Virus record (IMG/VR): IMGVR_UViG_3300037249_000698
Location: 31,134-95,133 of that record
Reading direction: 5' to 3' (one strand)
Length of the DNA stretch: 64,000 bases
Origin: a virus
Taxonomy: Duplodnaviria > Caudoviricetes
Shown here: piece after piece, positions 1-63,969 of the stretch
Numbering within the stretch: the first letter of the stretch is position 1
Layout: each line of letters starts with the position of its first letter
Translations under genes and position numbers: made by a program
Notes under the pieces: model-generated
Databases searched by the model: none
Seen by the model: the letters and a program-made list of their open reading frames with translations, nothing else
What the model was told of the DNA's origin: nothing

Positions 1-29
1 AAATGATCGCAAACGTTCTTTTTTGCCAT
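1..29 (-). CDS. 5' end of a leftward gene running out of the window (MAKKNVCDH...)
   Basis: Minus-strand GAGGTG SD, then ATG at 29; a consensus promoter lies upstream at 68-96. Confidence 0.6.
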
Positions 30-67
30 ATTCACCTCGATAGATATTTGTTAAATGATGTTTGAAA

Positions 68-96
68 TTATAATAGAAATAAAAGTTCATGTCAAC
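68..96 (-). promoter_or_regulatory. sigma70-type promoter TTGACA-17-TATAAT, leftward
   Basis: Reverse complement reads ttgaca tgaacttttatttctat tataat. Confidence 0.75.
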
Positions 97-140
97 AAAA
101 TTTTAATAAAATTTAATTTAACCGTAAAGAAACCCAACTG

Positions 141-292
141 CCTAAATGAACACGGCAACCGAAATGGATTTTGTGCAAAAGGGGGGGGTCAAGCCAAATG
201 AAAAGGGCAATCAGCCTAAATGGATAGTGCCGACCCACCGCCCGACCCTGCCGACCTGTGCCAAGAGCCAATGAACCGGAAACCTAGCGACC
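141..292. repeat. GC-rich boundary element: CCnAAATGRA-like x4-5, G8 run, CCGACC x3
   Basis: cctaaatgaa 141, ccgaaatgga 159, gccaaatgaa 193, cctaaatgga 215; G8 at 181-188; ccgacc at 230, 242, 251. Confidence 0.6.
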
Positions 293-387
293 TACTGGGT
301 GAATGTGACCTGCATCACTATTTTAGTCCGGCTATTTAGTAAACGGATTTTAAAAATTCATTCCTATATAGATGTATAAACCGCAAA

Positions 388-448
388 AGTGACTTATATC
401 ACAAATTTCAAACTTACTATTGACAAATAAAAACTGTTATGCAATAAT
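388..448 (+). promoter_or_regulatory. Early promoter with upstream CRP-like box
   Basis: AGTGA-N6-TCACA 388-403; TTGACA 420, AATAAT 443; second box TGTGA-N6-TCACT at 304-319. Confidence 0.7.
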
Positions 449-483
449 GACATCATGTTGATAACACATAAGGAATTAAACAA

Positions 484-894
484 ATGAATAAAACAGAATT
501 AAAAAACAGATTATCTAAAATTATTGATAGTTTTGAAAGCAGTTATGATGCGGATGATTATTATGAATTAACATCTCGATATGGGTGTGATTGTGATCCC
601 GAATGTAAAATTTATCAGTTAGAAGAATTAAACGATCTATATTGCGGTTATACAGTCTTAAATATTTTAGATGAATTAAAAGACATAGATACTGGAGATA
701 CATATTTTTGTTACACTATTTATGGTATAGAGTCTTTTACATGCTTTAGGGATATTAAGCGTCATTTAGAATATGAAAAGATTGTCGATATTATCCTAAA
801 AGATATTGATATTTTCTTAGATTGTGATTTTTATAGTTCAGAATTGACCGATCTTCAAAATGAATTATATGATGATGAAATAACAGAAGATTAA
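484..894 (+). CDS. Highly acidic early hypothetical protein (candidate DNA mimic)
   Basis: 136 aa, about one quarter D/E, AAGGA SD, own promoter. Confidence 0.8.
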   Translation: MNKTELKNRLSKIIDSFESSYDADDYYELTSRYGCDCDPECKIYQLEELNDLYCGYTVLNILDELKDIDTGDTYFCYTIYGIESFTCFRDIKRHLEYEKIVDIILKDIDIFLDCDFYSSELTDLQNELYDDEITED

Positions 895-902
895 AATTAT
901 TG

Positions 903-944
903 TTGACAATTTAAAATGATAGGTATATAATGTACCTATCTTTT
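903..944 (+). promoter_or_regulatory. Early promoter with -10-centred inverted repeat
   Basis: TTGACA 903, TATAAT 926; gataggta-TATAATG-tacctatc followed by TTTT. Confidence 0.85.
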
Positions 945-963
945 GAAAACAGGAGTTAAAGAT

Positions 964-1287
964 ATGGAAAAGAATTTAATTGCAAAGTGTGTTGATATTG
1001 TTAAACAAGGGGATATTGAAGATCGTTATCCTTTTGAAATGAGTGTGTATTTAATATACGATAACGGCACTTGTGAAAACGATGAAATGTATCAAATGTC
1101 ATGCGATGATATGGAATTTGTAACAGGTATGAAAATTGAAGAATTAAACGGATTATCTGATATTGAAATTGCTAGAATTATTGCGGAAAATTCCCATCCA
1201 TACGGCATCGGAGATGAACAGGATGTGTATGATTATTATTCTAGCGGATTACGTTATTATTCTAATACTATTGCTATTAAATTATAG
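964..1287 (+). CDS. Acidic early hypothetical protein
   Basis: ATG 964 follows AGGAG; the ORF track start at 943 is an upstream TTG. Confidence 0.8.
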   Translation: MEKNLIAKCVDIVKQGDIEDRYPFEMSVYLIYDNGTCENDEMYQMSCDDMEFVTGMKIEELNGLSDIEIARIIAENSHPYGIGDEQDVYDYYSSGLRYYSNTIAIKL

Positions 1288-1295
1288 GTGACTAT

Positions 1296-1598
1296 ATGAA
1301 CAAAATTACAGATGATATTGAAAAATTAGCTACTGAATGTACTAACAAATTACAAGATTTAACAGGCTATAACTATGTAATTAAACCATCCACAGGAGGC
1401 ACAATACAGTTAGATATTTATGAGTCTTTAGAAGATAGTGATCTCTATTTAGCAAACATCACATATAAATCAAGACATGATTTGTATGATAGATTAGTGA
1501 TATTCAAAAACAGTTTAGATATACTAAATTTGATAACTGATAATAATACTAGACAAGCTGTAGAATGTTACCTGTTTAACATTTTCAATACTTACTAA
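1296..1598 (+). CDS. Early hypothetical protein
   Basis: 100-aa ORF with AGGTG SD. Confidence 0.75.
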   Translation: MNKITDDIEKLATECTNKLQDLTGYNYVIKPSTGGTIQLDIYESLEDSDLYLANITYKSRHDLYDRLVIFKNSLDILNLITDNNTRQAVECYLFNIFNTY

Positions 1599-1669
1599 AA
1601 TTTATTGTTGACAAATGGATTTTATTATCGTAAAATATGGTTATCAATTTGGTTAAGGAGCAAACACAA

Positions 1670-2218
1670 ATGAAATTTTTTAAAAATACTGAATGTGCAT
1701 TAAAAGAAGATTTAGAAAGTCTTGTAAAAAATAGTATGAATCTAGATACTTTTATCAAATTGTATAACTATGATAATACTAATAGCATAATACCATTTTC
1801 AGAAATAGATCGCTTTATGCAGGATATTATTTTTGATTGTTACGGCAATTATGATTTAATACTCGCAAATATTAAGAAGCTAAAAGAAATCAAACAACAA
1901 TTAAAAGCGAATGATTTTGATATTTTTACAGAAGATCATGATGATCAATCGGACTTGTATTTTATTATAAACGGAAATGATATAAAGGATTATTTCTTTG
2001 CACATGAATTTGAAAATTTATATGAAGATGAATCCACAAGTAACAAGTTATTATTAGATGCTTGTGAACTTGTAATTAACAATATACTTGCAAGTTATAA
2101 AGCGTATTTATCACTTGTTGAAAGGATGAATAAAATTAATGATGTGAAAAATGATGTTACTATCAGATTAGAAAACCTGTTACGCTGTTATGATGAATTA
2201 TGCAAACTTGAAAAATAA
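1670..2218 (+). CDS. Early hypothetical protein
   Basis: ATG after AAGGAG; promoter TTGACA 1608 / TAAAAT 1631. Confidence 0.8.
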   Translation: MKFFKNTECALKEDLESLVKNSMNLDTFIKLYNYDNTNSIIPFSEIDRFMQDIIFDCYGNYDLILANIKKLKEIKQQLKANDFDIFTEDHDDQSDLYFIINGNDIKDYFFAHEFENLYEDESTSNKLLLDACELVINNILASYKAYLSLVERMNKINDVKNDVTIRLENLLRCYDELCKLEK

Positions 2219-2230
2219 TCAAAATATTTG

Positions 2231-2273
2231 TTGACAATTAAAATAAGATATAGTAATATATACTATATCTTAT
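2231..2273 (+). promoter_or_regulatory. Early promoter with perfect 13-bp inverted repeat over the -10 box
   Basis: TTGACA 2231; ataagatatagta-ATATA-tactatatcttat 2243-2273. Confidence 0.85.
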
Positions 2274-2292
2274 GAAACAGGGAGCAAACACA

Positions 2293-2706
2293 ATGGATAA
2301 TCAGATAATTAAAAAAGTATTAAATGCTATGTTTGATAACGGATTAGAAAGTTTTATTGAAAAAATGGTTTTCAGTAAAGCTAGATATAAGGATGATTAT
2401 TTTAAAAAGTATTTCAAGACTAATGATAAAATCTATTATTTAACTTATAATCAGTATTCTAATATGGTATGTAGTAATATTGAAATAGAATTACAAGAAA
2501 TTGATGAAGATTTGATCGGTTATACTCCTGTAGACTCTGAAAGAATTGTGCTTTATGATACAGTGAACGATGCTTGGGATAGTTTTAGATCTAAACATGA
2601 TGATGATAATTTAACGGATTCTGAAATGGATGCTTTATATGAAGATGAATACAAAGACATTATTTTTGAAGATGTGATAGATATTCTATCAAATTATTGT
2701 TATTAA
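2293..2706 (+). CDS. Acidic early hypothetical protein
   Basis: ATG after GGGAG; D/E-rich C-terminal half. Confidence 0.8.
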   Translation: MDNQIIKKVLNAMFDNGLESFIEKMVFSKARYKDDYFKKYFKTNDKIYYLTYNQYSNMVCSNIEIELQEIDEDLIGYTPVDSERIVLYDTVNDAWDSFRSKHDDDNLTDSEMDALYEDEYKDIIFEDVIDILSNYCY

Positions 2707-2771
2707 CTGTTGACAAAAGAAAAATTATATAGTATCATGTATAACATCAAATAACAAATGGAGTTGAACAA

Positions 2772-3290
2772 ATGAACACATCAATTATAAAACATGCTAA
2801 CGTACGTAACATTAAAGACAAAACTGTTGTTGATGTTGATTACGGATTGGAATATATAAAAGGAAATAGGGATGCATATTTCTTTATAACCGGCACTGAA
2901 TATCATGCAAATAAAAACGGTGAACGTGATGCAAGGCGTAAAGATTGTATTCAGTGCGGAGCAATAGGAGAATATATTTGTACCTTAAACAAAAATTTTG
3001 AAGATTTAAATCACTTTCATGGTAGATATGCGGATGGATCTCCATTATATCCTGTTGAAAATGGTTTGTTTTGGTTAGGTTGCACTAAATATGAAGCGTT
3101 TAATTTAAAATACGTGTGTGAACATTTTATGATAAATGAACAGGAGGCATACAGACTTAAAGATATTATTCATTCAGAAATGGATGATAATAAAAAGCGT
3201 GAAATTTTACAAAATATTATTGATACTGAATATAAAAGTAAATGGTTAGCGGAGGCAAAACGGATTCGAGATAAGTATAACTTGTGGTAA
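2772..3290 (+). CDS. Early hypothetical protein
   Basis: 172-aa ORF, GGAG SD, promoter TTGACA 2710 / TATCAT 2733. Confidence 0.8.
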   Translation: MNTSIIKHANVRNIKDKTVVDVDYGLEYIKGNRDAYFFITGTEYHANKNGERDARRKDCIQCGAIGEYICTLNKNFEDLNHFHGRYADGSPLYPVENGLFWLGCTKYEAFNLKYVCEHFMINEQEAYRLKDIIHSEMDDNKKREILQNIIDTEYKSKWLAEAKRIRDKYNLW

Positions 3291-3307
3291 AAAATTTAAA
3301 ATAACTA

Positions 3308-3349
3308 TTGACAATACAAAAAGGATAGAATATAATGTATCTATCCTTT
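3308..3349 (+). promoter_or_regulatory. Early promoter with -10-centred inverted repeat
   Basis: TTGACA 3308, TATAAT 3331; aaaggataga...tctatccttt. Confidence 0.85.
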
Positions 3350-3385
3350 AGAAACAAAGCGAGTTTAACACAAAAAGGAATTATT

Positions 3386-3703
3386 ATGGAAACTATTAAA
3401 GAAGTACGACAGGATATTAAAAACAAATTAGAAGCTATAAATCAAGATGATTACATGGTAGAAAATGACTTAAAATTAGTATTTGCTCCATCCTGTGGTA
3501 AATATCGTATCGAATTAACAGGGAGTGTAAACAAGGTATTTTTTGCACATAATCTCCGTGAATACAAGCTATGTTTATATAATTTTCACTCTTTAACTTG
3601 GATTTTGAGTAGACATTATAAGAATCCTAACACTGATGATGTTTTATCTATACAAAGTGTTATTGAACTTTTGGAGCATTGCGGATTTTATTATTATTGT
3701 TAA
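3386..3703 (+). CDS. Early hypothetical protein
   Basis: ATG after AAGGA SD. Confidence 0.75.
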   Translation: METIKEVRQDIKNKLEAINQDDYMVENDLKLVFAPSCGKYRIELTGSVNKVFFAHNLREYKLCLYNFHSLTWILSRHYKNPNTDDVLSIQSVIELLEHCGFYYYC

Positions 3704-3719
3704 ATTTTAAAAATAGTTG

Positions 3720-3760
3720 TTGACAAATAAATTAAGATAGTGTATCATAACACTATCTTA
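3720..3760 (+). promoter_or_regulatory. Early promoter with -10-centred inverted repeat
   Basis: TTGACA 3720, TATCAT 3743; taagatagtgt-ATCATA-acactatctta. Confidence 0.85.
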
Positions 3761-3789
3761 TAAAGAAAACCTAACAGGAGTACCAAAAA

Positions 3790-4488
3790 ATGGGATGGGA
3801 TGGAATTTATATCAGTGAACCGCACAAAACTGTATCTGAAAAGTTATCTGTATATTTCAAGTATCACGGATTTTGTGAAAATGAAGTTGTAAAAGCTACT
3901 ATCAAAAATGGTGTTGTTTACGGAGCAATCCGGAACTTAAAAACAAATGATGTATGGGCTATGGTTAGTTTGTTAAAATTCAGAAAGGATGGATGGCAAA
4001 CTGAAATGCTAGTAAAAAATATGAGTGAAGATATGATGCCGTATTATTTTGATTGCCCTAAAGCTATACTTGATTTATTGACAAAAACTGATAATGAACA
4101 TTCTAACGAATGGAGAAAAAGATGCTATGAACAGTTAGCAAACCAAAAGGAAAAAGCAAAAGTAAAAAAGAGTCCATATATTTTTGTAAAATCCGGTATT
4201 AGATTTAGCATGGGTTGTACTTATCATGTGTTTGAAAAAGATTCTACTATGCGAACTAAATATCATACCTTTGAAACAGGATATGGATTAAGAATCAGTC
4301 ATATAAATGATTTTGATGTGCAGTACATATCAGAAGAACAATATTTAAGATGTAAGGATGCATATTATAAGATTAGGGATGCTAAAATTTTAGTAGAGTA
4401 TGAAAAGACTAACGATCCGGAAATGATTAAATTATCACAATTAGAATTATGTGATGTATATCAAAATATTATAAATCAGACTGAATAA
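3790..4488 (+). CDS. DUF6927-like protein
   Basis: MGW start and K.MSEDM.PYYFDCP..ILDLLT....EWR.RC pattern recalled from this mobile-element family. Confidence 0.6.
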   Translation: MGWDGIYISEPHKTVSEKLSVYFKYHGFCENEVVKATIKNGVVYGAIRNLKTNDVWAMVSLLKFRKDGWQTEMLVKNMSEDMMPYYFDCPKAILDLLTKTDNEHSNEWRKRCYEQLANQKEKAKVKKSPYIFVKSGIRFSMGCTYHVFEKDSTMRTKYHTFETGYGLRISHINDFDVQYISEEQYLRCKDAYYKIRDAKILVEYEKTNDPEMIKLSQLELCDVYQNIINQTE

Positions 4489-4491
4489 TTA

Positions 4492-4534
4492 TTGACAAAT
4501 AAAACTAGATAGATTAAAATAAATCTATCTAGTT
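4492..4534 (+). promoter_or_regulatory. Early promoter with 13-bp inverted repeat
   Basis: TTGACA 4492, TAAAAT 4515; aactagatagatt-AAAATA-aatctatctagtt. Confidence 0.85.
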
Positions 4535-4551
4535 AGCAAGGGAGTTATATT

Positions 4552-4974
4552 ATGGGATATGAAGTAAGGGATGTGTTTGATATATTAGAAAAAGAATTAA
4601 CAGATTATTTTTTGTCTTTACCTGTTGAAAAGCAAGTACCATTAATAAATGAATATTATAACACTATTAAAATTATAAAATTAACAGATTGTCTATCAGA
4701 TGATCAAATGGAAAATTTTTATAAAAAAGTTGAAAATTTATATGTAGTATTTTTTGGTAAAACTACATTAGAACCGATTATTTATACAAAAACGGAATTG
4801 ATAAAACAAGACTGGTTTATACATGCCATTAAAACATTATGTTATTGTTATGATAAATTTTCTTTTGATGATATTGAAGATTCTCATATTCAAGATATTA
4901 TTATAACTATGCAAAATGTCGCAAGGGCAATAGACAAAATTAAAAATCAAAAAGTTGAAATAATTTTAAAATAA
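4552..4974 (+). CDS. Early hypothetical protein
   Basis: 140-aa ORF, GGGAG SD. Confidence 0.8.
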   Translation: MGYEVRDVFDILEKELTDYFLSLPVEKQVPLINEYYNTIKIIKLTDCLSDDQMENFYKKVENLYVVFFGKTTLEPIIYTKTELIKQDWFIHAIKTLCYCYDKFSFDDIEDSHIQDIIITMQNVARAIDKIKNQKVEIILK

Positions 4975-4977
4975 TAG

Positions 4978-5019
4978 TTGACAACAAATAAAGATAGTAT
5001 TATAATGATACTATCTTTA
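4978..5019 (+). promoter_or_regulatory. Early promoter with 12-bp inverted repeat
   Basis: TTGACA 4978, TATAAT 5001; taaagatagtat-TATAATG-atactatcttta. Confidence 0.85.
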
Positions 5020-5038
5020 ATACAGGGAGTAATAACAA

Positions 5039-5515
5039 ATGATGATAGATTTAGAAATTATTATTGAAGAATTAGATCGCTTTTATAACGTTCACTGTTT
5101 AGAAAATGATAGATTAAACAAGTTTTCAAAGTGCATTATTGAAGATGCAAAAAGAATGATAACAAATGTTATTTCAGACTATGGATTTGAAATTGAGTCT
5201 AAACAGGAATTAGCAAAACGGATTTCAAAAAACAGATATGAATATTTAGATCTCACAAAATTTGCGGAATTAATATCATCCTGTAGTATTGATGCGGAAA
5301 TTTGCACAGATACAATTTATAAAAGATATTTATCAGATAATCTGTATAATGCGTATAAGAATGAAGATCCAAGTTTTGAAGATGCTAGAAAACGTATGAT
5401 CGGATATAGACAAAATATGACTGATATTTATTTAGAGGCTAAAAGTTATGCTAAGGCATGGCAAAAAATCGAACGTATTATTGATGATATAGAAGAATTT
5501 AAACTAACACATTAA
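5039..5515 (+). CDS. Early hypothetical protein
   Basis: 158-aa ORF, GGGAG SD. Confidence 0.8.
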   Translation: MMIDLEIIIEELDRFYNVHCLENDRLNKFSKCIIEDAKRMITNVISDYGFEIESKQELAKRISKNRYEYLDLTKFAELISSCSIDAEICTDTIYKRYLSDNLYNAYKNEDPSFEDARKRMIGYRQNMTDIYLEAKSYAKAWQKIERIIDDIEEFKLTH

Positions 5516-5523
5516 AATAATTG

Positions 5524-5560
5524 TTGACAAGTTTTGTGAGTAGTAGTAAAATACTACTCA
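5524..5560 (+). promoter_or_regulatory. Early promoter with inverted repeat
   Basis: TTGACA 5524, TAAAAT 5547; tgagtagta-GTAAAA-tactactca. Confidence 0.8.
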
Positions 5561-5586
5561 TAAACCAAAAACAGGGAGTTAAAATT

Positions 5587-6120
5587 ATGAATGATTGTGA
5601 ATATATAAAAGACTTTTGGACTAATGATGATGTTAGAATTGTTTACAGTACAGACTTTTTGAAACAGGATAAGGAAAACGATTTTAAAAAAGCTATTGAA
5701 AACCTGTATGAATATATGGTAAACGGAGATTTTGAAACAGAATTTGATTTTGATGTAGAAAACGATTATTGCATCTTATGTGAAGAATATCCGGAACTTG
5801 AAACATATAATATCTTGCATCGTATGGGGGATTTAGACTCATATTGTGAAGAATTTAATATAACAATTAGTAACTTTTTGGAAAATATGGATGATAGCTT
5901 TAGTTTGTGCGATAATTATTTTTGTGATAGTAGACAATATATAAGCGGAGATAGTTTAACTAGTTTTAATATTGATTATTTAGATATTGTTAGACAAATA
6001 GCATTTTCACCGGAAAAATTACTACAATTTGAAAACGGAAAAAACATTATTTTAAAAAATTTAGATTGTGACCATTTAAAAAAGATACTTATTGATATTC
6101 TAAACTGTATTGAAAAATAA
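5587..6120 (+). CDS. Highly acidic early protein, probable distant paralog of 484..894
   Basis: ATG after GGGAG; D/E-rich; both share a D.YFC motif followed by an ES/SF-like segment. Confidence 0.75.
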   Translation: MNDCEYIKDFWTNDDVRIVYSTDFLKQDKENDFKKAIENLYEYMVNGDFETEFDFDVENDYCILCEEYPELETYNILHRMGDLDSYCEEFNITISNFLENMDDSFSLCDNYFCDSRQYISGDSLTSFNIDYLDIVRQIAFSPEKLLQFENGKNIILKNLDCDHLKKILIDILNCIEK

Positions 6121-6123
6121 ATC

Positions 6124-6166
6124 TTGACAATATTTTTAAAGTAGTATAGATAATTCTATACTACTT
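6124..6166 (+). promoter_or_regulatory. Early promoter-like module with 12-bp inverted repeat
   Basis: TTGACA 6124; aagtagtataga-TAAT-tctatactactt; -10 spacing imperfect. Confidence 0.6.
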
Positions 6167-6425
6167 AATAAAGTAAAGTTATAGATATGGAGAAAAACGG
6201 ATTGTATTATTTTTGCTTAATTATTCTTTTATCATTCCTGTTTGTTATTGATAACATTCTTTTACAGATAATGAGATGATAAACGGAATTTAAATTTTTT
6301 TAAAATAGTTATTGACAAAAGAAAAATAGTATATTATCATATATAGCATAGTAACGGAGCAATATCAAAAAGTTAAACCTGTTACTGATTAAAAAACGGA
6401 TTATAAATAAAAGGAATATAACACT

Positions 6426-7454
6426 ATGAATACTAAAATTGAAACTCTTATTAAAAAATCACTCTGTTTAAACTCTAATACCAATAAAGTTTTAGTTAGT
6501 CAAAAAGACAATATTTTGACTCTTGAAACATCAAACTTTATGGTTAAAATTCCTGTTAATAGTAATGAAACATTTGAAGGTTTTACAAGTTCTGATATTA
6601 TTAAATCTAACAGTATTGATAATATTAAATTTATCACTCGAATTGAAGATACTTCAAACGAATATAGACACGAATTTAAAACTTATTCCAAAAAGGTAGT
6701 TATTAATCCAGTAAATTTTAAAAAGTTATTATTACAGAAAACACAGAGTAATAATGCAAATATTTGTGATGCCGTATGGTTTAATTACGATAATATGTAT
6801 GAAACAAACGGACATTACATCATAGCTATAAATAACGCTTATTCAGAAAACGATTGTACTTTTGGAATAGATAAAAAGATTGTAGAACTATTAAAAAATT
6901 GTACTGAATACTTGTTTGTAAGTTATGAAAATAATGATACAGATTATCACAAATCACAAAATACCAGTATAGAATTAAATATTGACGGAATACTATTTCA
7001 TTATAATTCAGTAATTACTATTTGTGATTTTAAGTCTATGATCCATAATGCTATGAGTTTTAAATCACAAATTTTAAAGGAATACAAGTTTGACAATTTA
7101 AAGGAATTTTCAAAACTGTTAGCGAGTGCTAAAAACGATGAAAAAAGGATTGTATTAGATTTTAAAAAGGATAAATTGACCGCATATAACATCTTTAATG
7201 CAGGTACTATAAACAATTATAAAATGAGTGAGATCGGCACATGTAACAGTAATTATCATTCAGATGATGAATTAAATAGAATTGTAATTGATAGTAACTA
7301 TGCAAAAAAGATAAAAGATGCGATTAAAAATGATGCGGAAATATTATTAAAATTAGAGGGAGATAAAAGATACGGAATAAATAAAATGACCATTAGAAAT
7401 AGTAATTTGACTTTAATTATTATGGGAGTTGTGAATTGTAATTTTATTGAATAG
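6426..7454 (+). CDS. Divergent beta-sliding-clamp-like protein
   Basis: 342 aa; DAVWF...YETNGHYI resembles the clamp GV.F...ATDGHRL motif; ends LIIMGV; promoter TTGACA 6312 / TATCAT 6335. Confidence 0.5.
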   Translation: MNTKIETLIKKSLCLNSNTNKVLVSQKDNILTLETSNFMVKIPVNSNETFEGFTSSDIIKSNSIDNIKFITRIEDTSNEYRHEFKTYSKKVVINPVNFKKLLLQKTQSNNANICDAVWFNYDNMYETNGHYIIAINNAYSENDCTFGIDKKIVELLKNCTEYLFVSYENNDTDYHKSQNTSIELNIDGILFHYNSVITICDFKSMIHNAMSFKSQILKEYKFDNLKEFSKLLASAKNDEKRIVLDFKKDKLTAYNIFNAGTINNYKMSEIGTCNSNYHSDDELNRIVIDSNYAKKIKDAIKNDAEILLKLEGDKRYGINKMTIRNSNLTLIIMGVVNCNFIE

Positions 7455-7465
7455 TCATAAAAATT

Positions 7466-7493
7466 ATAGGGAGTATATATGAATACTCCCTAT
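7466..7493 (+). terminator. Strong hairpin after the clamp-like gene (terminator or processing site)
   Basis: atagggagtat-ATATGA-atactccctat; poor U-tract. Confidence 0.5.
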
Positions 7494-7607
7494 TAAATCA
7501 GTATGAAAAACGGATTAAAAATTTTTAAATTTTTTATTGACAATAAAAAGTCATTGTAGTATCATGTATTCCATACGATGAACGGATAACAAATACGGAG
7601 TAACGAT

Positions 7608-7961
7608 ATGAATACTTTAAAAGATTTAATTAAAAATTCATTCCATAATTTTAATGAAAAATTTTCTTTATTAAAAAATGATGTTTTCTATACTGTAGAG
7701 ATCCAGTATGATTTAAATGTGGAATATTCAGATCCGGAAATTGTTGTATGTATGGAGACAAAAAAGCATAAAATTGAATTTAGTTTTCATTTGAATAGTT
7801 TTTTTAATGATTATTATAATGGGGATAATTTTGAAAAACAGTATAATCATTTTCAAAATTCTGTTTTAAACTCTATTAGAAACAGATATTCATTTGTTAA
7901 ACATAATGATGATAGTTTTATTAAAAAGTGCTTTTTTGGAGGTCAATATATATATTACTAA
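7608..7961 (+). CDS. Early hypothetical protein
   Basis: GGAG SD; promoter TTGACA 7537 / TATCAT 7560. Confidence 0.8.
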   Translation: MNTLKDLIKNSFHNFNEKFSLLKNDVFYTVEIQYDLNVEYSDPEIVVCMETKKHKIEFSFHLNSFFNDYYNGDNFEKQYNHFQNSVLNSIRNRYSFVKHNDDSFIKKCFFGGQYIYY

Positions 7962-8067
7962 TAATGTGATACAGGTCATAAAACGGATTATTTTAAAATT
8001 GACCTGTTGACAATTAAAAAACAATATGCAATAATATATTCATGTTTTGAGATATGGAGTAAACAAT

Positions 8068-8307
8068 ATGACTAATAAAGAATTTAGCGAATACAGATCC
8101 GGCAAAAAATGTGCTTCAGAATATATCATGGAGCTTGTCAATATACGTGTATATAATCCGGATAGTTTAACATCAAGACAATTAAAACAGATTATTAAAG
8201 ATAAAATTGATTTATCAAATAAGTTAATTACTGATAATAATCAAGTATCATTTAATCAAGGTTATAAACATACTATGGAGGATTTTTTACACTTCATCAC
8301 AAAATAA
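8068..8307 (+). CDS. Early hypothetical protein
   Basis: ATG after GGAG; promoter TTGACA 8007 / AATAAT 8030; CRP-like box 7965-7980. Confidence 0.75.
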   Translation: MTNKEFSEYRSGKKCASEYIMELVNIRVYNPDSLTSRQLKQIIKDKIDLSNKLITDNNQVSFNQGYKHTMEDFLHFITK

Positions 8308-8319
8308 ATCAAATAGTAA

Positions 8320-8361
8320 TTGACAATTAAAAAAGATAGTATTATGATAATACTATCTTTT
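8320..8361 (+). promoter_or_regulatory. Early promoter with 14-bp inverted repeat
   Basis: TTGACA 8320, TATGAT 8343; aaaagatagtatta-TGA-taatactatctttt. Confidence 0.85.
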
Positions 8362-8380
8362 AGAAAACAGGAGCAAAAAA

Positions 8381-8707
8381 ATGACTATTAAAAGATCTGA
8401 TATTGATTTTCTTGTAAATGATATAAATGAACAGTTAAAAAATTTTTATTTATCAAATATAGATAAAATTGTCGCTAGAAAAGATCAAAAAGGATTCTGT
8501 ATTGAATATATAATTAATGGTAAACAATCAAATAGTTTTTATGCTAACCTTAGTAAAAATCAGATTTATATTTTTCTTGAAACATTAAACAGGTTATTAT
8601 ATAAAAATGTGACCATAACAGGATGCACAGATACCGAAGATCAGAAAAAAGGCAATACAGATTTAATCGTTAATTTGATTGAATTTTGGAATAAATCAAA
8701 TATATAA
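8381..8707 (+). CDS. Early hypothetical protein
   Basis: AGGAG SD. Confidence 0.8.
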   Translation: MTIKRSDIDFLVNDINEQLKNFYLSNIDKIVARKDQKGFCIEYIINGKQSNSFYANLSKNQIYIFLETLNRLLYKNVTITGCTDTEDQKKGNTDLIVNLIEFWNKSNI

Positions 8708-8814
8708 AATGTGGAAATAAATCACAAAATTTTAAAAATAGTGTTTGACAATAAAACAAAATTAGTTTAGAATGATACTCATAAATCGTTAAACACTATT
8801 TAAGGAGTACAAAA

Positions 8815-9126
8815 ATGATTATTTTAAACACTGAAAACAAATTAAAACTTGAAATTATTTACAATGTAATTAGTTCTATTATTTATGATTACAGAGTAAC
8901 TTTAAATTTAAGTGCTAGATACAGAATTGAATTTTCATGCGATAAAGGTATTGTATCCGCTGTATTCTTAGATAATGATGAAGAAGTAATTAAATGCGAT
9001 ACTTTTAAGGATATATCCTTTTATAAAATGTTTTATGGATTCGTAAACGGCATTATTATTGAATATGCTTATAACGATATAGTAATTGAACAGGAGCACA
9101 AAATTATTGCCACAATAAAAATCTAA
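8815..9126 (+). CDS. Early hypothetical protein
   Basis: AAGGAG SD; promoter TTGACA 8745 / TAGAAT 8768 enclosed by inverted repeat 8737-8800. Confidence 0.8.
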   Translation: MIILNTENKLKLEIIYNVISSIIYDYRVTLNLSARYRIEFSCDKGIVSAVFLDNDEEVIKCDTFKDISFYKMFYGFVNGIIIEYAYNDIVIEQEHKIIATIKI

Positions 9127-9223
9127 CAGGGATCACAAAATTTAATAGTGCTATTGACAACAAAATTGAATAGCACTATAATAAAAACAGTTAAACGGAT
9201 AAAACAATACAGGAGCTAAAGCT

Positions 9224-9481
9224 ATGAACAAATCATTATTAGTTAAAAGTGCGTATATTAAACTTGAAAACAATGATGCTTATATTGTAAGGCAGTATGA
9301 AGATCGATTAAGTTTAGAGTTTAGTCCGGCGGGGGATCGTGAATTTTACGAAGTGCGGATTTCTCCTGTATTGAATAGCTTTATTAAATTGATTCAATGG
9401 TATAAGGCAGTAGAAAATTACAAATTTATTCAGATTGCCTACCGTCATTCTAAGGAATTTTTAAAAGTAAAAACAATTTAG
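9224..9481 (+). CDS. Early hypothetical protein
   Basis: AGGAG SD; promoter TTGACA 9154 / TATAAT 9177 with inverted repeat atagtgctatt/aatagcactat. Confidence 0.8.
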   Translation: MNKSLLVKSAYIKLENNDAYIVRQYEDRLSLEFSPAGDREFYEVRISPVLNSFIKLIQWYKAVENYKFIQIAYRHSKEFLKVKTI

Positions 9482-9502
9482 TTGTATTGTACTCCAGTGA
9501 TT

Positions 9503-9531
9503 AAAGGGACTAATTTTTTAGTCCCTTTTTT
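9503..9531 (+). terminator. Intrinsic terminator
   Basis: aaagggacta...tagtccc followed by T6. Confidence 0.8.
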
Positions 9532-9562
9532 GTTATTCCAGAAAAAACATAAAATTTAATAC

Positions 9563-9808
9563 AGGGACTATAAATTATTTGAAACAGGATAATTAAAACC
9601 AAAAACGGATTAAAAGTTATATTATAAAAATTACCATAAAGGGATTATAAATTATTCAGATAAATATAAATAATTGTGTAAACGGATTAAATTTTAAAGG
9701 GATTTTAAAAATTAAAAGTCAAGTAAATTAAATCAAAAATTAGATAAAAGTCACAAAATATTTTGAATGATAAACGGATTATTAAATTGTGCATAAAGTC
9801 ACAAAATA
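9563..9808. repeat. Degenerate direct-repeat tract (~77-bp period)
   Basis: aggga(c/t)tataaattatt at 9563 and 9640; aaacggatta at 9603, 9680, 9773; aaagtcacaaaata twice. Confidence 0.6.
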
Positions 9809-9899
9809 AATTAAAAAGTAATTGCAATTTGAATTTAATTTAATTATAATAGAATACATAAAATGATTAAGGCATAAATCAATTTTAGGAGTACACATT

Positions 9900-10226
9900 A
9901 TGAAACAATTTATTACATTTAAAAAACTGAAGAAGTGTTATGACATCGTTGTTTGTGGTGGTAATTTTTCTGAAATTGCAAAAAGTATTGAACCTGTATA
10001 CTATCATCACGGCAAATATGGATGGGATTGCGACATTATAACCGGATTTGTAGAACACGGAGATCGGGTGTATAGCGTTGCGGTGTGTTTAGGTTATCGT
10101 TGCATTGGTATGGAATTAAAAGGCATGTATGAGTTTATGCACGCTAAAAATGAACTTGCCAAAATGCACGTATTGAATGAAGAAGAATTTTGGATAGATT
10201 TACAAAATTTTGTATTTAAAAATTAA
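9900..10226 (+). CDS. Early hypothetical protein (G.YGW.CD motif)
   Basis: AGGAG SD; promoter TTGCAA 9822 / TATAAT 9845; CRP-like box 9788-9803. Confidence 0.8.
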   Translation: MKQFITFKKLKKCYDIVVCGGNFSEIAKSIEPVYYHHGKYGWDCDIITGFVEHGDRVYSVAVCLGYRCIGMELKGMYEFMHAKNELAKMHVLNEEEFWIDLQNFVFKN

Positions 10227-10264
10227 AGCACATGGCACATCAATTACACATTAAAATCACGCTT

Positions 10265-10293
10265 AAAGACTGATAAAAATATCAGTCTTTTTT
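10265..10293 (+). terminator. Intrinsic terminator
   Basis: aaagactgata/tatcagtc followed by T6. Confidence 0.8.
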
Positions 10294-11198
10294 ATTTATC
10301 CGCCAAAATATGATAGTTAAAACAGGTAGAAAGAATTTTACTCAAATAATAGTTTGACTTATTAAGAAGATATGGCATCAATCACTAAGAATTAACGCCA
10401 TAAGATCTAATAAGTGCCGTTTTTAATTCATAGTATTATATGTTAAATTCAGATTTTATAGTAAATTGTTTGACTTTTTTAAAAGTAAGTAATAAGTTTT
10501 AATTATCTCACGATATTTTATACTTATAATTCCGCTTAAAAACAAAAAGTAATACTTTATGAAAATTTAGTCTAATAAAAAAAATTACTCATAAAATGCA
10601 CTTTTTTAACGTTTTTTAAGGGATAGAGCACGATATACACATATTGGTATATGTCTTGTCAACCATTCCTATAGCAAACACCTAAAAGCCCAAAAATCAA
10701 AAATATAAATAATATATATTTTTTAAAAATGAAATATAGATATATATATCTACATCATTATATATTAGAGTATAAATATCATGGTATAGAGTAGTATTCA
10801 GTATTTAGAAAAAACCGAAGTAAAAGCATATTAAACATAGTAATTTAGTATGATATACAGCGTGTATATTTCAGTCTGATAATGCGGAATAGTTATCTAT
10901 ATGATGTGGTTTATTAGTCTGTATAGATACGTGATTATAACTGTATAGATAGAGTGACCATATAAGCGTAAAATCTCATAGAATAAGGCTAAATTGCAAA
11001 ATATCCGCTTGTAATAGTCCGGTAATATGGTTAATAGGGAAATACGCTACAGGGCAATAAAACACAAATAAACCGCATTTTTGACGATGTGTAATATTAG
11101 TGTGATATAAGTCAAAAAATTTATTAAATAATGATTGTAAAGTGAATTATATTTTGATACAATTTAAGTATGTAAAAACCATTTAAGGAGCGTAAACT

Positions 11199-11576
11199 AT
11201 GATAAAAAATTCAAATTTAAATGAAGTATTTTACAGTACTGTAAAAATGCTATTGGATGGAGTATGGAACGGAGCACAGGTTCTTTTTTCACAAAATTTA
11301 GACAAGGAGACTAAATTTGATATAGAGTTTAATATCAAAAAAAATGCCGGATCACAAAATTCTTACTCTGTAGAATTTAATGACATCGATTTAATCGATC
11401 CTTCCAATAATGCCGATCCCGCTAAATTTACAGTCTACACTGAAACTAGACTGTTTCAAGTGATTGACATGTTATTAGAGCACTCTATGTTAGACGGCAA
11501 TGCTAAATGCCGGATCTATGACTCAGACGGAGATAGAGTGTGTGAATTTTGTTTTGTGTGGGAAAGTGATATATAA
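11199..11576 (+). CDS. Acidic hypothetical protein
   Basis: AAGGAG SD; promoter TTGTAA 11135 / TACAAT 11158; CRP-like box 11101-11116. Confidence 0.8.
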   Translation: MIKNSNLNEVFYSTVKMLLDGVWNGAQVLFSQNLDKETKFDIEFNIKKNAGSQNSYSVEFNDIDLIDPSNNADPAKFTVYTETRLFQVIDMLLEHSMLDGNAKCRIYDSDGDRVCEFCFVWESDI

Positions 11577-11615
11577 TCGATATTGTTTCATGTAAAACAT
11601 TTAAGGAGTACAAAT

Positions 11616-11963
11616 ATGACATTATATGAAGAACTTTACAAAATCGTGAAAGAAAAAAAGGTTAAAGTCTGGAATTTTGCGGGTAATACTTATGAGTTCA
11701 CCCATTTTACAGGGAATCATCATTATCAGGTTAGACTTGCTTATGTGGGTAAATATTACGATGAGTATTTGACGACAACTCATATTGTAAAATTATCTAG
11801 ACATAATTTTGATTACATTATCAAAAAACTAATGTATCAAATTATCAGAAACACTTTAAGAAATTCCGCACAAGTTCGCTTTAATGTTTATTACGCTAAA
11901 CAAAAACTTGTGCAAGTTCACAGCTCTACAGGTGATTTTTACGGATGGAAAAAACCTGAGTAA
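11616..11963 (+). CDS. Basic hypothetical protein
   Basis: ATG after AAGGAG. Confidence 0.75.
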   Translation: MTLYEELYKIVKEKKVKVWNFAGNTYEFTHFTGNHHYQVRLAYVGKYYDEYLTTTHIVKLSRHNFDYIIKKLMYQIIRNTLRNSAQVRFNVYYAKQKLVQVHSSTGDFYGWKKPE

Positions 11964-12049
11964 AGTCACAAAATAATCTTTTCATAGCTTGCAAGTAATA
12001 TGCGAGCTATGATAGAATAGTCTTACAATTTAAATATAGGAGTAACAAT

Positions 12050-12256
12050 ATGAACAGTAACAACAGTATGCCGTATAACGCTTCAGTAGAAAAAACAGGA
12101 GTGATCTTGACTCTCATCGGTATGATAGCCGGCTTTTTTATCATGCTTTACGGCTTGGCAGTAAATAACGCTTATATCGGCTTGATCGGGTTATTCCTTA
12201 GTTTAGGTGTATTCATGTTAATGCCATTATTCTACAAGTTGGCTAAAATATTGTAA
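12050..12256 (+). CDS. Two-TM membrane protein
   Basis: Two hydrophobic segments; AGGAG SD; promoter TTGCAA 11989 with inverted repeat. Confidence 0.75.
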   Translation: MNSNNSMPYNASVEKTGVILTLIGMIAGFFIMLYGLAVNNAYIGLIGLFLSLGVFMLMPLFYKLAKIL

Positions 12257-12277
12257 CAATTACAGGGAGGAAACATT

Positions 12278-12526
12278 ATGAATTTATCTTATTGTGGTTT
12301 AATGCTTAATATCATGTTTGCTTTAACTCTATCCAGTAACACCAGTAATGCCCTTGTTATGCGTGATTTGCGTACACTCGAGACAATAGTCAATAACAAG
12401 AAGTCTAGTAAGGCAATCGATGTTAATGCACTTTTAAGCGAGTTTAAACAGGTTACACACCTTAAAATCAGTCATAATGACCTGTATAATTATTTCATGT
12501 TTCATGGTGTGAAGTTTCATGTATAA
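12278..12526 (+). CDS. Hypothetical protein
   Basis: GGAGG SD. Confidence 0.7.
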   Translation: MNLSYCGLMLNIMFALTLSSNTSNALVMRDLRTLETIVNNKKSSKAIDVNALLSEFKQVTHLKISHNDLYNYFMFHGVKFHV

Positions 12527-12595
12527 AGGTATGATATGTTACTTGTAATTATTGTGGCTATTGCATGTATTTGTTATGTGTGTTAGCCTAAAATT

Positions 12596-12624
12596 TAGCC
12601 GGAGCAATATCCGGCTATTTTTTT
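12596..12624 (+). terminator. Intrinsic terminator ending the early block
   Basis: tagccgga/tccggcta followed by T7. Confidence 0.85.
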
Positions 12625-12751
12625 GCCTGTTAAATATCCCATATAGTTTTTATATGCTTGACAACAAAATTTAATCTAATATAATTATTAAGTTAGATTT
12701 ATTTTTAGGTTGTCTATCTAACATAATATCACATATAATTATTATGCTTTA

Positions 12752-13017
12752 TACTTGACATAATATCTAGTATAATTTTTATATAGTGTAATTGACCTAA
12801 ATATACAGTATAATTTTTATACATATAATTTTTATACCAGACCAAACCAGCTTTTATACGTATGATATGGCTATAATTTTTATGTGGTATGCGTCTAAAA
12901 ACTAGGCGGAGGGGGCATACTTTTTATACCCATTTTTTGCCCTCGGAATATCTAAAGTTTCCCCTCTGATATAAAAAGTTTTACAACATTCCCCTCTGAT
13001 TCAAAAAATGTTACAAT
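12752..13017. repeat. Right boundary element: TATAATTTTTAT x4, G-rich run, 30-bp tandem repeat
   Basis: tataatttttat at about 12771, 12809, 12824, 12872; ggcggaggggg 12905-12915; ttcccctctgat...ttacaa at 12959 and 12989. Confidence 0.65.
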
Positions 13018-13052
13018 GTGCAAAAGCAAGATAGGTTTAATAAGGAGAGTCC

Positions 13053-14150
13053 ATGAGATATTTGATATGGTGTGAAGTCAATCGTGCGTGGCAAGAAGCA
13101 TGTTTAGTGTGGCTGTATTCACTGTGCAGGGAGTTGTGTTTTTGTGAGCATGAGGTAAAGGTTGTGATATTTTACGATGTAGGCAAAACCTCCGCTGACA
13201 ACAATGATACCAACACAATCTCATTCAGCAACCGTGTTCAGCAGATAGGGATGAGATTTAACGTAGAGATTGAGGTTGAATTATTTAGCAGTCGAGATTT
13301 TGTATCAGACCTCCCACCGACATTTGCATCAAACAGGTGTATTGACGAGGATAGTGTAGCGATAGCAATATCTAGGGTGATGAATTACAACAAGTTATTG
13401 TCTGACAATTTAGATAGCTCTATACAACCGATGATGTTATCTGCGGATAGTCGCAACGTAATCAACTCAAATCTACGGATATGCAATCCGAACGCCCCTG
13501 ACAACACCATCGACAACGGTGTGGTTTATATCCATTGTGATATTGACGGAATGTTTTTAGAGGATAGTAATTTAGAGTTATTATTTGACGGTATTGACTC
13601 TGTGATAGCTGACAATGATTCCCCATTGTTAATCGGCGTAAACGAGTATGATGATATTGAGCCTGCCTTATCCAAGACTCATTCAGAGGAGTTTATGACT
13701 AGGTTACAAGGCGTGTATTTAAATTGTGGTTTTATTTGTTTTTACAATGTACCAACATTTGACCTTGCTGAACTGAAAGACTTTTTATCTACCGAGGACT
13801 CTTACTGTTTAGAGCAAGACTATCTCAACTTATTAGGCTGTGACAATCCCTCTCTGACTCGCATTTGTTTACAACCTCAATACAATTACACTTACAGGAA
13901 GATGCTTGTCGAAACGCCAAAACAACCTTTTACGTTGCCTGTATTCGTACATTACTACGGCTCTGACAAACCGTTTTTACCGAATCCCAAATCTACTAAC
14001 GGTATAGACTCTGACGTAACGCCTGCGATAGCTCACTATTATTTTCCTGAATATGGTCAGTTAGTATTTAAGATTCGTTGCTTATTAAGCGTAGATTTTG
14101 TGAATTTAGTACGCAAAAGATGCGTAGAAGAATATTGGACTGAGCGATAA
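13053..14150 (+). CDS. Glycosyltransferase family 8-like protein
   Basis: DxD (DIDG), LNCGF, EQDYLN and VHYYGSDKPF motifs typical of GT8. Confidence 0.7.
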   Translation: MRYLIWCEVNRAWQEACLVWLYSLCRELCFCEHEVKVVIFYDVGKTSADNNDTNTISFSNRVQQIGMRFNVEIEVELFSSRDFVSDLPPTFASNRCIDEDSVAIAISRVMNYNKLLSDNLDSSIQPMMLSADSRNVINSNLRICNPNAPDNTIDNGVVYIHCDIDGMFLEDSNLELLFDGIDSVIADNDSPLLIGVNEYDDIEPALSKTHSEEFMTRLQGVYLNCGFICFYNVPTFDLAELKDFLSTEDSYCLEQDYLNLLGCDNPSLTRICLQPQYNYTYRKMLVETPKQPFTLPVFVHYYGSDKPFLPNPKSTNGIDSDVTPAIAHYYFPEYGQLVFKIRCLLSVDFVNLVRKRCVEEYWTER

Positions 14151-16980: not shown

Positions 16981-17310
16981 ATGTTTGATGAACAGTTTAA
17001 AGAAATCTTGAACGGCTTGTTATTTGCCGTGATAGCAGGTGTAGGAGGTTCTGTGGCATATTTATCTTCATTGTTCGGCAACCGTAAAAAGTTCGTGCTA
17101 TTCGACTTTTTTGTTAAGGTTTTGTCAAGTGCGTTCGCAGGTCTGCTGATAGGTTGGCTTTTGAGCTACTATCAGTACCCTATTTCAGTCATTTGTTCCG
17201 TTACAGGTACAGCAGGCTATATAGGGGCAGATTTTACTATCAACCTATTAAAACGCATCATTACAAGTAAGGCAGAATTAGTCGTTGTTGACAAGGAGAA
17301 TGACAAATGA
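16981..17310 (+). CDS. Holin
   Basis: Three TM segments between endolysin and spanins; ATG after GAGGA. Confidence 0.8.
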   Translation: MFDEQFKEILNGLLFAVIAGVGGSVAYLSSLFGNRKKFVLFDFFVKVLSSAFAGLLIGWLLSYYQYPISVICSVTGTAGYIGADFTINLLKRIITSKAELVVVDKENDK

Positions 17311-63679: not shown

Positions 63680-63969
63680 TACTTGTCCTTACTAGGTTTA
63701 AACCATTCTAGTCTATTCGTTTCATAATTAAATCTGATAAACGGCGAATTGCGTTGCGTTAGTCCTGTGCCAAAATAATACTCATCCCTAACATCTTCAC
63801 AAAGCGGATATAGAATATCGTGTATCTGATTTACTAAATCTGCGGTTAATTTCTTTTTACGAAAATCTGTTTGTAGCAACTCCTCTAACTGTATTCTGAA
63901 AACGGTTAAACCTAAATGATAACCGTTCTTAAAATCAGGAGATGCAAATCGTAGTGGATTATCCTGCAT
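63679..63969 (-). CDS. Hypothetical protein
   Basis: GAGGTGG SD. Confidence 0.7.
   Translation of the reverse strand: MQDNPLRFASPDFKNGYHLGLTVFRIQLEELLQTDFRKKKLTADLVNQIHDILYPLCEDVRDEYYFGTGLTQRNSPFIRFNYETNRLEWFKPSKDK

Follow-up and report, generated by a model that had tools for sequence, protein, structure and literature searches.

We analysed a stretch of 64,000 nucleotides (hereafter the window) that covers bases 31134–95133 of a 95,133-bp viral contig, IMG/VR record IMGVR_UViG_3300037249_000698. The early region of this phage contains an array of small genes whose promoters carry embedded inverted repeats, an arrangement that resembles the Promoter early Stem-Loop (PeSL) cassettes of T4-like phages. 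Elsewhere, the window encodes terminase, portal, a major head protein, a tape-measure protein of 1893 amino acids, tail proteins and a DNA polymerase. The nearest portals are those of Seurat/PaMx25-like siphoviruses, with an identity of at most 45%. As the same sequence occurs at both ends of the contig (positions 28–54 and 95034–95060 of the contig, the latter corresponding to window positions 63901–63927), it appears to be a complete or nearly complete phage genome, which either assembled as a circle or is terminally redundant. This is evidently an uncultured siphovirus-type phage from animal gut or rumen metagenomes, unrelated to the T4-like myoviruses. The early-gene array spans positions 420–9481 and consists of 18 small open reading frames (ORFs) and 17 promoters, all on the plus strand. 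Across the array the G+C content is 23–29%, compared with 35–40% in the remainder of the phage.

A preliminary description of the window had stated that almost every early ORF is preceded by the same sigma70 promoter module, which runs from a stop codon through an A/T tract, TTGACA, 17 bp and a -10 to GGAG and ATG, and direct reading of the sequence bears this out. Intergenic plus-strand matches to TTGACA, a 17-bp spacer and TAxxxT start at 420, 903, 1608, 2231, 2710, 3308, 3720, 4492, 4978, 5524, 6312, 7537, 8007, 8320, 8745 and 9154. With this spacer, 16 promoters score 10–12 out of 12 against a sigma70-like consensus. At 6124, the -35 is the same as in the other promoters and the -10 (TAGATA) is poor. 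An AT-rich tract that contains the stop codon of the upstream gene precedes each -35 (e.g., stop at 892–894 and -35 at 903), and in the modules a GGAG or GGGAG Shine–Dalgarno (SD) sequence lies 6–10 nucleotides (nt) 5' of the ATG. Presumably, these genes are transcribed early in infection by the host sigma70-type polymerase, with starts and termination as predicted below.

Nine of the promoters contain a perfect inverted repeat with arms of 8–14 bp and a loop of 3–10 nt. The repeat centres lie 24.5–28.5 nt from the start of the -35, which places them on the -10 hexamer. We number these modules 1 to 9 or refer to them by the first position of the -35. In module 1 (903–945; -35 at 903–908, -10 at 926–931) the repeat at 918–940 has 8-bp arms and a 7-nt loop (TATAATG), and its stem can be extended to 913–945 with one T.T mismatch. 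Module 2 (2231–2273; -10 at 2254–2259) has a repeat at 2243–2273 with 13-bp arms and a loop of 5 nt, module 3 (3308–3349; -10 at 3331–3336) one at 3320–3349 with 10-bp arms and a loop of 10, and module 4 (3720–3760; -10 at 3743–3748) one at 3733–3760 with 11-bp arms and a loop of 6. The arms measure 13 bp around a 6-nt loop in module 5 (4492–4534; -10 at 4515–4520, repeat at 4503–4534) and 12 bp around a 7-nt loop in module 6 (4978–5019; -10 at 5001–5006, repeat at 4989–5019). Modules 7 and 8 are of the AGTAG type. The perfect repeat of module 7 (5524–5564; -10 at 5547–5552) at 5537–5560 has 9-bp arms and a 6-nt loop, and lies within a longer stem of 13 bp with one G.U pair (5533–5545/5552–5564). 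Module 8 (6124–6166), the one with the poor -10, drives only a 30-codon ORF and has a repeat at 6139–6166 with 12-bp arms and a 4-nt loop. The longest arms, 14 bp around a loop of 3 nt, are found in module 9 (8320–8361; -10 at 8343–8348, repeat at 8331–8361).

All nine of these repeats, from 918 to 8331, had been noted in the preliminary description, and they occur far above chance. Between 401 and 9300 there are nine repeats with arms of at least 10 bp, compared with 0.51 expected from 100 dinucleotide shuffles (maximum 3). Two geometric details had been put too broadly. The -10 was said to lie in the loop, which holds entirely for some copies, whereas in modules 2231, 3720, 4492 and 8320 the first bases of the -10 belong to the stem. 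The spacing between the core motifs was given as 10–16 bp; the values 10 and 16 occur in the two AGTAG-type copies, and the other seven of the nine have a spacing of 12 or 13. The pattern GATAG-N10-16-CTATC is present nine times in the window (0.25 expected), six of them within these promoters. The list of perfect repeats of the whole genome confines the -10-centred class to the array; the other long repeats are ordinary terminators. Outside the early region, GATAG...CTATC pairs occur at 17148–17173, 24080–24100 and 54741–54764; these three alone exceed the 0.25 expected in the entire window, and they do not resemble promoter modules.

The position of the repeats determines which transcript can carry the hairpin. 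Transcription is expected to start about 7 nt after the -10, inside the 3' arm. The mRNA of a promoter would thus lack the 5' arm, so that the hairpin could form only in read-through transcripts that come from the upstream cassette. The first promoter (420–448; TTGACA-17-AATAAT, TG-extended) contains no hairpin and has no gene upstream on its strand, which is consistent with a role on read-through RNA. As RNA, the stems have predicted energies from -10 to -14.5 kcal/mol, which equals the stability of the phage's canonical terminators, and the corresponding DNA hairpins have energies of -4.8 to -9.5 kcal/mol.

Pairing was assessed in two class-specific alignments in pairing register, which contained paralogous and orthologous modules with a core spacing of 12 or 13. 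As a single MAFFT alignment of all modules followed promoter position and not the pairing register, the two class alignments were used instead. The class with spacing 13 contained 12 distinct sequences from this phage and its relatives. Of its cells 96.8% were paired, compared with 77% in shuffles and 33–58% with slid partners, and 8 of its 13 pairs had changed on both sides, a number reached in none of 500 shuffles. In the class with spacing 12, 90.6% of the cells were paired and double changes were found in 5 of the 12 pairs. Stem positions in and outside the GATAG core vary between copies, yet every change is mirrored in the other arm. Such mirrored changes amount to base-pair covariation, unlike the independent half-sites of a protein operator. 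The preliminary description had noted that arms differ between copies and stay complementary, and had proposed that structure is under selection; aligning the modules and testing for covariation led us to the same view. The alignments thus indicate that it is the pairing, and not a fixed operator sequence, that is selected.

Natural variation in relatives extends this picture. Exact-protein look-ups in ENA and Logan assemblies yielded about 20 contigs with the same divergent early region (here given L numbers), which represent at least six lineages with gene 1 identities of 77–99%; about 90 nearly identical variants of gene 1 have been recorded. The hairpins are kept in the orthologous modules, and pairing, whose loss in related phages had been named beforehand as evidence against a selected structure, is conserved. 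Among the orthologs, 7% of the columns vary in the stems, compared with 23% in the loops, 16% in the unpaired spacer and 29% in the AT-rich upstream tract; the -35 is invariant. The arms of module 2 are unchanged in every relative that has the module, and those of module 4 are invariant in six lineages and carry a single transversion in L118. Where stems do deviate from Watson–Crick pairing, the plus strand shows 12 G.U cells and no A.C cells. Parsimony gives about seven independent stem transitions, every one of which creates a G.U and none an A.C in a credible stem: two in module 903 (from L102 and the L105 group), two in 5524, and one each in 4978, 8320 and 9154. By our own binomial estimate, a pattern of G.U only has a chance of about 1 in 100, against the 1:1 ratio expected under roughly symmetric mutation. 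The variants include the G.U pairs in orthologs of module 1, a U.G in module 6 of the L105 and L114 groups and a U.G in module 9 of L102. In module 7, orthologs have either A-U or G.U at the wobble pair of the longer stem; L100 has a second U.G, and in the L114 group a change lengthens the stem.

Loops and stem sequences have changed as well. The loop of module 6124 measures 4 nt in our phage and 9 and 20 nt in L100 and L102, both of which also show a compensatory double change from A-U to G-C. In L102 the 20-nt loop moves the hairpin centre to about 10 nt downstream of the -10, with pairing kept. The stem of the 4492 type is found both with a 6-nt and with a 9-nt loop, and L112 has -10-centred hairpins at 5124 and 9027 with stems of a type unrelated to either GATAG or AGTAG. 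Taken together, the wobble restricted to G.U, the growth of loops, the compensatory change and the unrelated stems in L112 point to a hairpin that acts as plus-strand RNA, and not to an operator or a cruciform.

If the palindromes were operators, a dimeric phage or host repressor would bind them and shut off the early promoters over the -10, a position ideal for repression. The conserved GATAG...CTATC core and its spacing of 12–13 nt in seven of the nine copies fit such a site. However, departures from the consensus in one arm are mirrored in the other, two copies carry AGTAG at spacings of 10 and 16, unrelated stems take the same place in L112, and orthologous loops differ in length (4, 9 or 20 nt in one module, 6 versus 9 nt in another). 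The cores are about 18 bp apart from centre to centre, a distance at which the two half-sites would face different sides of the helix, and Pfam detected no DNA-binding domain or regulator among 20 early ORFs. We therefore regard repression through these repeats as highly improbable.

A role at the DNA level was the first of three models in the preliminary description: a cruciform or single-stranded hairpin, formed on supercoiled or entering DNA, would control melting or recognition of the -10. Long, perfect and AT-rich arms with short loops are what such a structure needs, and in nine promoters the centre of the repeat falls within about 2 nt of the -10. The variants speak against it, as a G.T accepted on the plus strand is an A.C on the other strand and would weaken both arms of a cruciform, which needs pairing in the two DNA strands, and as the orthologous hairpin with the 20-nt loop in L102 has left the -10. 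In addition, other modules have their repeats around or upstream of the -35, and the first promoter has no hairpin. This model thus found no support, and we consider it very unlikely. The stereotyped centring can be explained without a function in DNA, as the hairpin would make use of those promoter positions that are free in sequence, namely the 3' half of the spacer and the discriminator and start region.

Finally, the hairpins might have no function and have been inherited along with duplicated modules, with intrastrand template switching (quasi-palindrome correction) keeping them perfect. The modules are indeed paralogous over about 80 nt, a stretch that includes the GAAAACAGGAG leader, the AT-rich tract and the -35, and several stems are invariant in the available relatives, which are close. 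Still, the stems vary less than the loops and the spacer beside them, many different stem sequences all pair, and a compensatory double change coincides with loop expansion. Template switching would also not be expected to produce a strand-specific bias towards G.U. Passive maintenance of the palindromes therefore seems most improbable to us.

What the hairpin does in read-through RNA is less certain than the cassette system itself. Of the models put forward earlier, the one with most support is that of a terminator or RNase III site in RNA from the upstream cassette, in so far as it places the structure in read-through RNA, since all wobble pairs are G.U; RNase III is unlikely, and termination would be only partial. 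The T-runs said to follow several hairpins are present, and they are merely 2–4 T long. On a d'Aubenton-Carafa-type scale the U-tails are mildly enriched (median score -3.29, compared with a background mean of -2.33), and the module hairpins lack the G+C-rich stem followed by at least 5–6 U of a canonical intrinsic terminator. Given the short U-tracts, termination can be partial at best; the efficiency of the hairpins as terminators is probably partial, and they can be attenuators at best, or 3'-end stabilisers.

The latter possibility is the alternative that the RNA hairpin does not terminate and instead forms a processing barrier that blocks 3'–5' exonucleases, leaving each monocistronic message with a stable 3' end of its own. 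The evidence from pairing, covariation and G.U applies to it equally. The hairpins lie about 20–25 nt past the upstream stop codons, and the short or absent U-tracts, especially those of modules 5524 and 9154, would suit a stabiliser better than a terminator. On the other hand, most tails start with 2–4 U right after the last G-C pair, the 3' ends would still need a source if termination did not occur, and a cloned PeSL stem-loop terminated transcription in a reporter (PMC2839356). We find a purely stabilising role rather unlikely. Two further roles were considered and rejected. Stems of 8–14 bp are short for RNase III, which argues against processing by this enzyme as their main role. The hairpins are also not placed to hide the SD sequence of the next gene in read-through RNA, as the right arms end before it.

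Gene content differs between close relatives, and the junctions reveal where cassettes have been exchanged. Gene 7 with module 3308 (about 3315–3697) is absent from L100, and the junction lies in the AT-rich/-35 part common to modules 3308 and 3720. Seven L114-type contigs lack gene 6 together with promoter 2710 (about 2716–3313), and here the crossover coincides exactly with the shared -35. In L102, an unrelated gene takes the place of the gene at 8381–8707, and the replaced stretch runs from the ATG to just past the stop. Modules themselves have been swapped: L108 and L112 have a module of the 4492 type, with a 9-nt loop, before gene 2 instead of one of the 903 type, and the gene 16 homologue of L100 is driven by a module of the 8745 type. 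The preliminary description had suggested that the repeats are recombination handles for the shuffling of single genes. Two cassette insertions or deletions, a gene replacement and swaps at module boundaries agree with this, whereas the crossovers map to the conserved -35/AT-rich part and not to the hairpin arms. Gains and losses of genes accordingly do break inside modules, as the gene 7 and gene 6 junctions illustrate, with the exception of one deletion in L100 that is discussed below. As the AT-rich tract, the -35 and the GAAAACAGGAG leader are shared between paralogous modules, these could serve homologous recombination. The junctions indicate that the modules behave as recombination substrates, as PeSLs do.

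We thus put at roughly 60% the probability that the array is a PeSL-type cassette system in which the stem acts at the level of RNA. Each small early gene would have its own consensus sigma70-type promoter with a built-in stem-loop. A cassette would consist of promoter, leader, gene and hairpin, in that order, with the hairpin of each cassette folded into the promoter of the next: the 5' arm in the spacer, the -10 hexamer as loop and top of the stem, and the 3' arm over the discriminator and the start site. In read-through RNA, the hairpin would most likely be a weak intrinsic terminator or attenuator and a 3'-end structure. It would insulate the cassettes from each other and reduce the extent to which transcription piles up over the 17 strong promoters in tandem. 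The paralogous modules would meanwhile be substrates for homologous recombination, so that single genes could come, go or be exchanged while their neighbours stay undisturbed. The CTATC/GATAG core itself may represent a preferred pyrimidine–purine start site (the TA 7 nt after the -10) together with its complement.

A more elaborate variant would give the location of the -10 in the loop a meaning of its own: termination of one cassette would be coupled to the start of the next by sigma70 pausing and handover, or the hairpin or cruciform would tune melting of the -10, making the array a self-insulating relay. The -10 might pause a read-through polymerase that carries or re-binds sigma70, in which case a weak U-tract would suffice and the paused enzyme would be released directly onto the next promoter. 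We think this reading unlikely.

Several observations weigh against a PeSL-type system with a stem that acts as RNA. The G.U-only pattern consists of only about seven events in closely related genomes. Tail scores range from -1.95 to -4.08, clearly weaker than the -4.4 to -5.9 that the canonical terminators of this phage reach; U-tracts amount to merely 2–4 U, and modules 5524 and 9154 have essentially none. Six array promoters are without an embedded hairpin. The GATAG/CTATC core and its fixed spacing of 12–13 nt in seven of nine copies would suit a sequence-specific reader. Genes 2–3 of L100 were lost through a plain deletion at a 4-nt microhomology (gtta) that runs from coding sequence to 5' leader; what is left of gene 2 is a 5' stub joined to the gene 4 leader (L100 positions 6939–6999). 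Lastly, starts, termination and timing are predictions from the sequence.

The promoters that lack a -10-centred repeat are varied. Besides the first promoter, that at 1608–1636 has no strong hairpin, and that at 6312–6340 is hairpin-free and has a long 5' leader. The promoter at 2710–2738 has no -10 hairpin, and an 8-bp long-range pairing (2695–2702/2750–2757) seen there by eye shows wobble variants among the relatives. That at 8007–8035, which has no embedded hairpin, has a 7-bp repeat just upstream (7971–7977/7999–8005, also by eye). Likewise without an embedded hairpin, the promoter at 7537–7565 has a separate hairpin with 11-bp arms upstream, at 7466–7493, directly after the gene at 6426–7454. 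The array is closed by a hairpin at 9503–9528 that resembles a canonical intrinsic terminator and has a run of six T.

In a second group, the repeat surrounds the -35. The preliminary description had listed such repeats at 8737, 9145 and 11983, and we found all three as well as a fourth at 9807–9842. The first is a long-range inverted repeat (8736–8801; 17 nt, 88%) that encloses the whole of the promoter at 8745, is preceded by TCACAAAAT at 8722 and is kept in relatives. The second (9145–9179; 11-bp arms, loop of 13), with TCACAAAAT before it at 9133, encloses the -35 of the promoter at 9154, and in L100 it has a G.U variant and a longer stem. The fourth (9-bp arms, loop of 18) encloses the -35 (TTGCAA) of the promoter of the gene at 9900–10226, with TCACAAAAT at 9799. 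The third (11982–12012; 12 nt, 92%) encloses the -35 (TTGCAA at 11990) of the promoter of the gene at 12050–12256, with TCACAAAAT at 11966. The TCACAAAAT motif is enriched (16 copies versus 2.3 expected), with further copies at 8297 and 9751. It is found 13–25 nt upstream of the -35 in exactly those promoters that have a repeat enclosing the -35 (8745, 9154, 9822 and 11990), an association that may point to a second class of promoters that has a regulator site of its own. An extra promoter (TTGACA-17-TAAATT, with TCACAAAAT in the spacer) lies 40 nt upstream of the 8320-type module in L102 (13207–13275) and L116 (11525), which makes tandem promoters there.

A Pfam search of 20 early ORFs gave one match over the curated cut-off (DUF6927, in the product of 3790–4488), and BLASTP found no paralogy between the early proteins of the array. 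The products of 484–894, 964–1287, 1670–2218, 2293–2706 and 5587–6120 have net charges of -14 to -25, and no Pfam match was found for these strongly acidic proteins (window 484–6120), which are candidate DNA-mimic, anti-defence or host-takeover proteins. More generally, the cassettes flag about 20 early proteins, often very acidic, as candidates for host takeover or anti-defence. Rfam matched nothing within window positions 1–13200, and megablast of the early region against GenBank phages gave zero matches. A further motif, AACGGATT, occurs 15 times in the window (2.85 expected); 13 of the copies are on the plus strand in or beside the early region (342–9780), often in leaders or just 3' of genes.

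On either side of the array there are other stretches with possible regulatory or replicative features. Between a divergent leftward promoter (95–67, minus strand) and the rightward promoter at 420 lies a G+C-richer spacer (120–340), in which several GCC-A/T-AAATG-A/G-A-like repeats and a run of eight G could hold iterons, an origin or regulator sites. Two AT-rich and ORF-poor stretches, 9482–9899 and 10227–11198, flank the gene at 9900–10226. Overlapping TATATA palindromes are present at 10699–10767 and canonical terminators at 9503–9528 and 10265–10290, and these stretches may be a replication origin or a non-coding RNA region. Further downstream, consensus promoters form a tandem cluster of three or four at 12658–12850 (at 12658 and 12755, among other positions), upstream of the gene at 13053–14150, together with a repeated TATAATTTTTATA-like unit.

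How does the array compare with known systems? Promoters of the N4 virion RNA polymerase have no sigma70 hexamers; they consist of 5–7 bp stems with 3-nt loops, and the phage polymerase reads the extruded hairpins. As in N4, a DNA inverted repeat forms part of an early promoter here, whereas the sigma70 hexamers in the array are perfect, natural variants show wobble of the RNA type, and the window's largest ORFs encode tail proteins. In the host-takeover module of SPO1, small early genes are densely packed, and their host-type promoters and ribosome-binding sites are very strong; our array is similar in its density and promoters. We know of no description of promoter-embedded inverted repeats as a defining feature of that module. 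A synthetic cruciform-regulated promoter with an inverted repeat across the sigma70 -10, reportedly made by Horwitz and Loeb in 1988, was an engineered switch at the DNA level. The variation in our phages, which tolerates G.T and allows the loop to grow, argues against such a role here.

Intrinsic terminators and attenuators share with the module hairpins the order of A-run, stem, loop, stem and T-run, and an equal stability as RNA. They differ in that the elements of the array have only 2–4 U and 2–4 G-C pairs per stem and are located inside the next promoter. The morons of lambdoid phages are autonomous units of promoter, gene and terminator (PMC2839356). Like the cassettes, they are single-gene transcription units that are gained or lost; unlike these, they are scattered, usually as antisense or late-region inserts, and lack conserved flanking modules that mediate exchange.

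When IMG/VR was scanned for the pattern TTGACA-N11-13-GATAG-N12-13-CTATC, the 90 matches found were single and scattered, and none formed another array; IMG/VR searches with the flanking proteins gave no usable early region. Two metagenome scans, one by protein and one by the exact module pattern, returned no match. When all fetched loci were scanned, arrays were found in true relatives only; distant homologues of the neighbouring 240-amino-acid protein are in unrelated contexts (L109, L110).

The closest counterpart is the PeSL. PeSLs were described in RB49 and phi1 by Arbiol et al. in 2010 as strong sigma70-like promoters combined with a stem-loop (PMC2839356), and were extended to PST and nt-1 by Comeau et al. 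in 2014 (PMC4122927). Their layout comprises an AT-rich tract with an upstream stop, a promoter, an SD sequence and an ATG, with the stem-loop in one of five positions, most often in the space separating the -35 from the -10 or overlapping the -10 (PMC2839356, Figure 2 legend and text). When a PeSL stem-loop was cloned, it lowered lacZ expression to roughly the same extent as rrnB T1 did (PMC2839356). Consensus stems such as A3-4 G3-loop-C3 T3-4 have short T runs too (PMC4122927). The geometry with the -10 in the loop had been thought undescribed in the preliminary description, and this has to be revised: it is listed among the commonest PeSL arrangements (PMC2839356), and in the phi1 ORFan region, which we checked directly, 7-bp arms (GGGAGTA/TACTCCC) surround a -10 (TAAGAT) in the loop. 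Other phi1 promoters have the stem-loop in the spacer.

Our array shows this layout: an upstream stop within the AT-rich tract, consensus -35 and -10, an embedded stem-loop, an SD sequence and an ATG. As with PeSLs, the early region is plastic, its small ORFans each stand singly between modules, and the junctions of insertions and deletions fall inside modules. The stem-loops overlap the -10, overlap the -35 or lie upstream of it, and have short T runs. By position, nine overlap the -10, four enclose the -35 or the whole promoter, and one, at 7466–7493, matches the PeSL subclass with a stem-loop upstream of the -35. There are also differences. The stems of the array are long (8–14 bp), AT-rich and perfect, with a GATAG core, whereas those of PeSLs are short G/C tracts, and a single subclass, centred on the -10, dominates here, unlike in PeSLs. 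In the published PeSL reports that we examined, the carriers are solely T4-like. RB49/phi1, PST/T4-like and nt-1/KVP40-like phages are all T4-type myoviruses, whereas the array is found in an unrelated 95-kb siphovirus-type phage. The PeSL is a functional class and not a homology family. The array probably consists of PeSL-type cassettes and is a further example, in a new phage lineage, of a mechanism that is already known. Mobile regulatory cassettes of this kind would then occur beyond the T4-like myoviruses, in an unrelated lineage of siphovirus type. The natural variation of the array makes a cleaner computational case for a stem acting as RNA than the original PeSLs had. The array also supports the view that, with modules of promoter plus hairpin, virulent phages have converged on a general means of insulating single accessory genes, expressing them and shuffling them.

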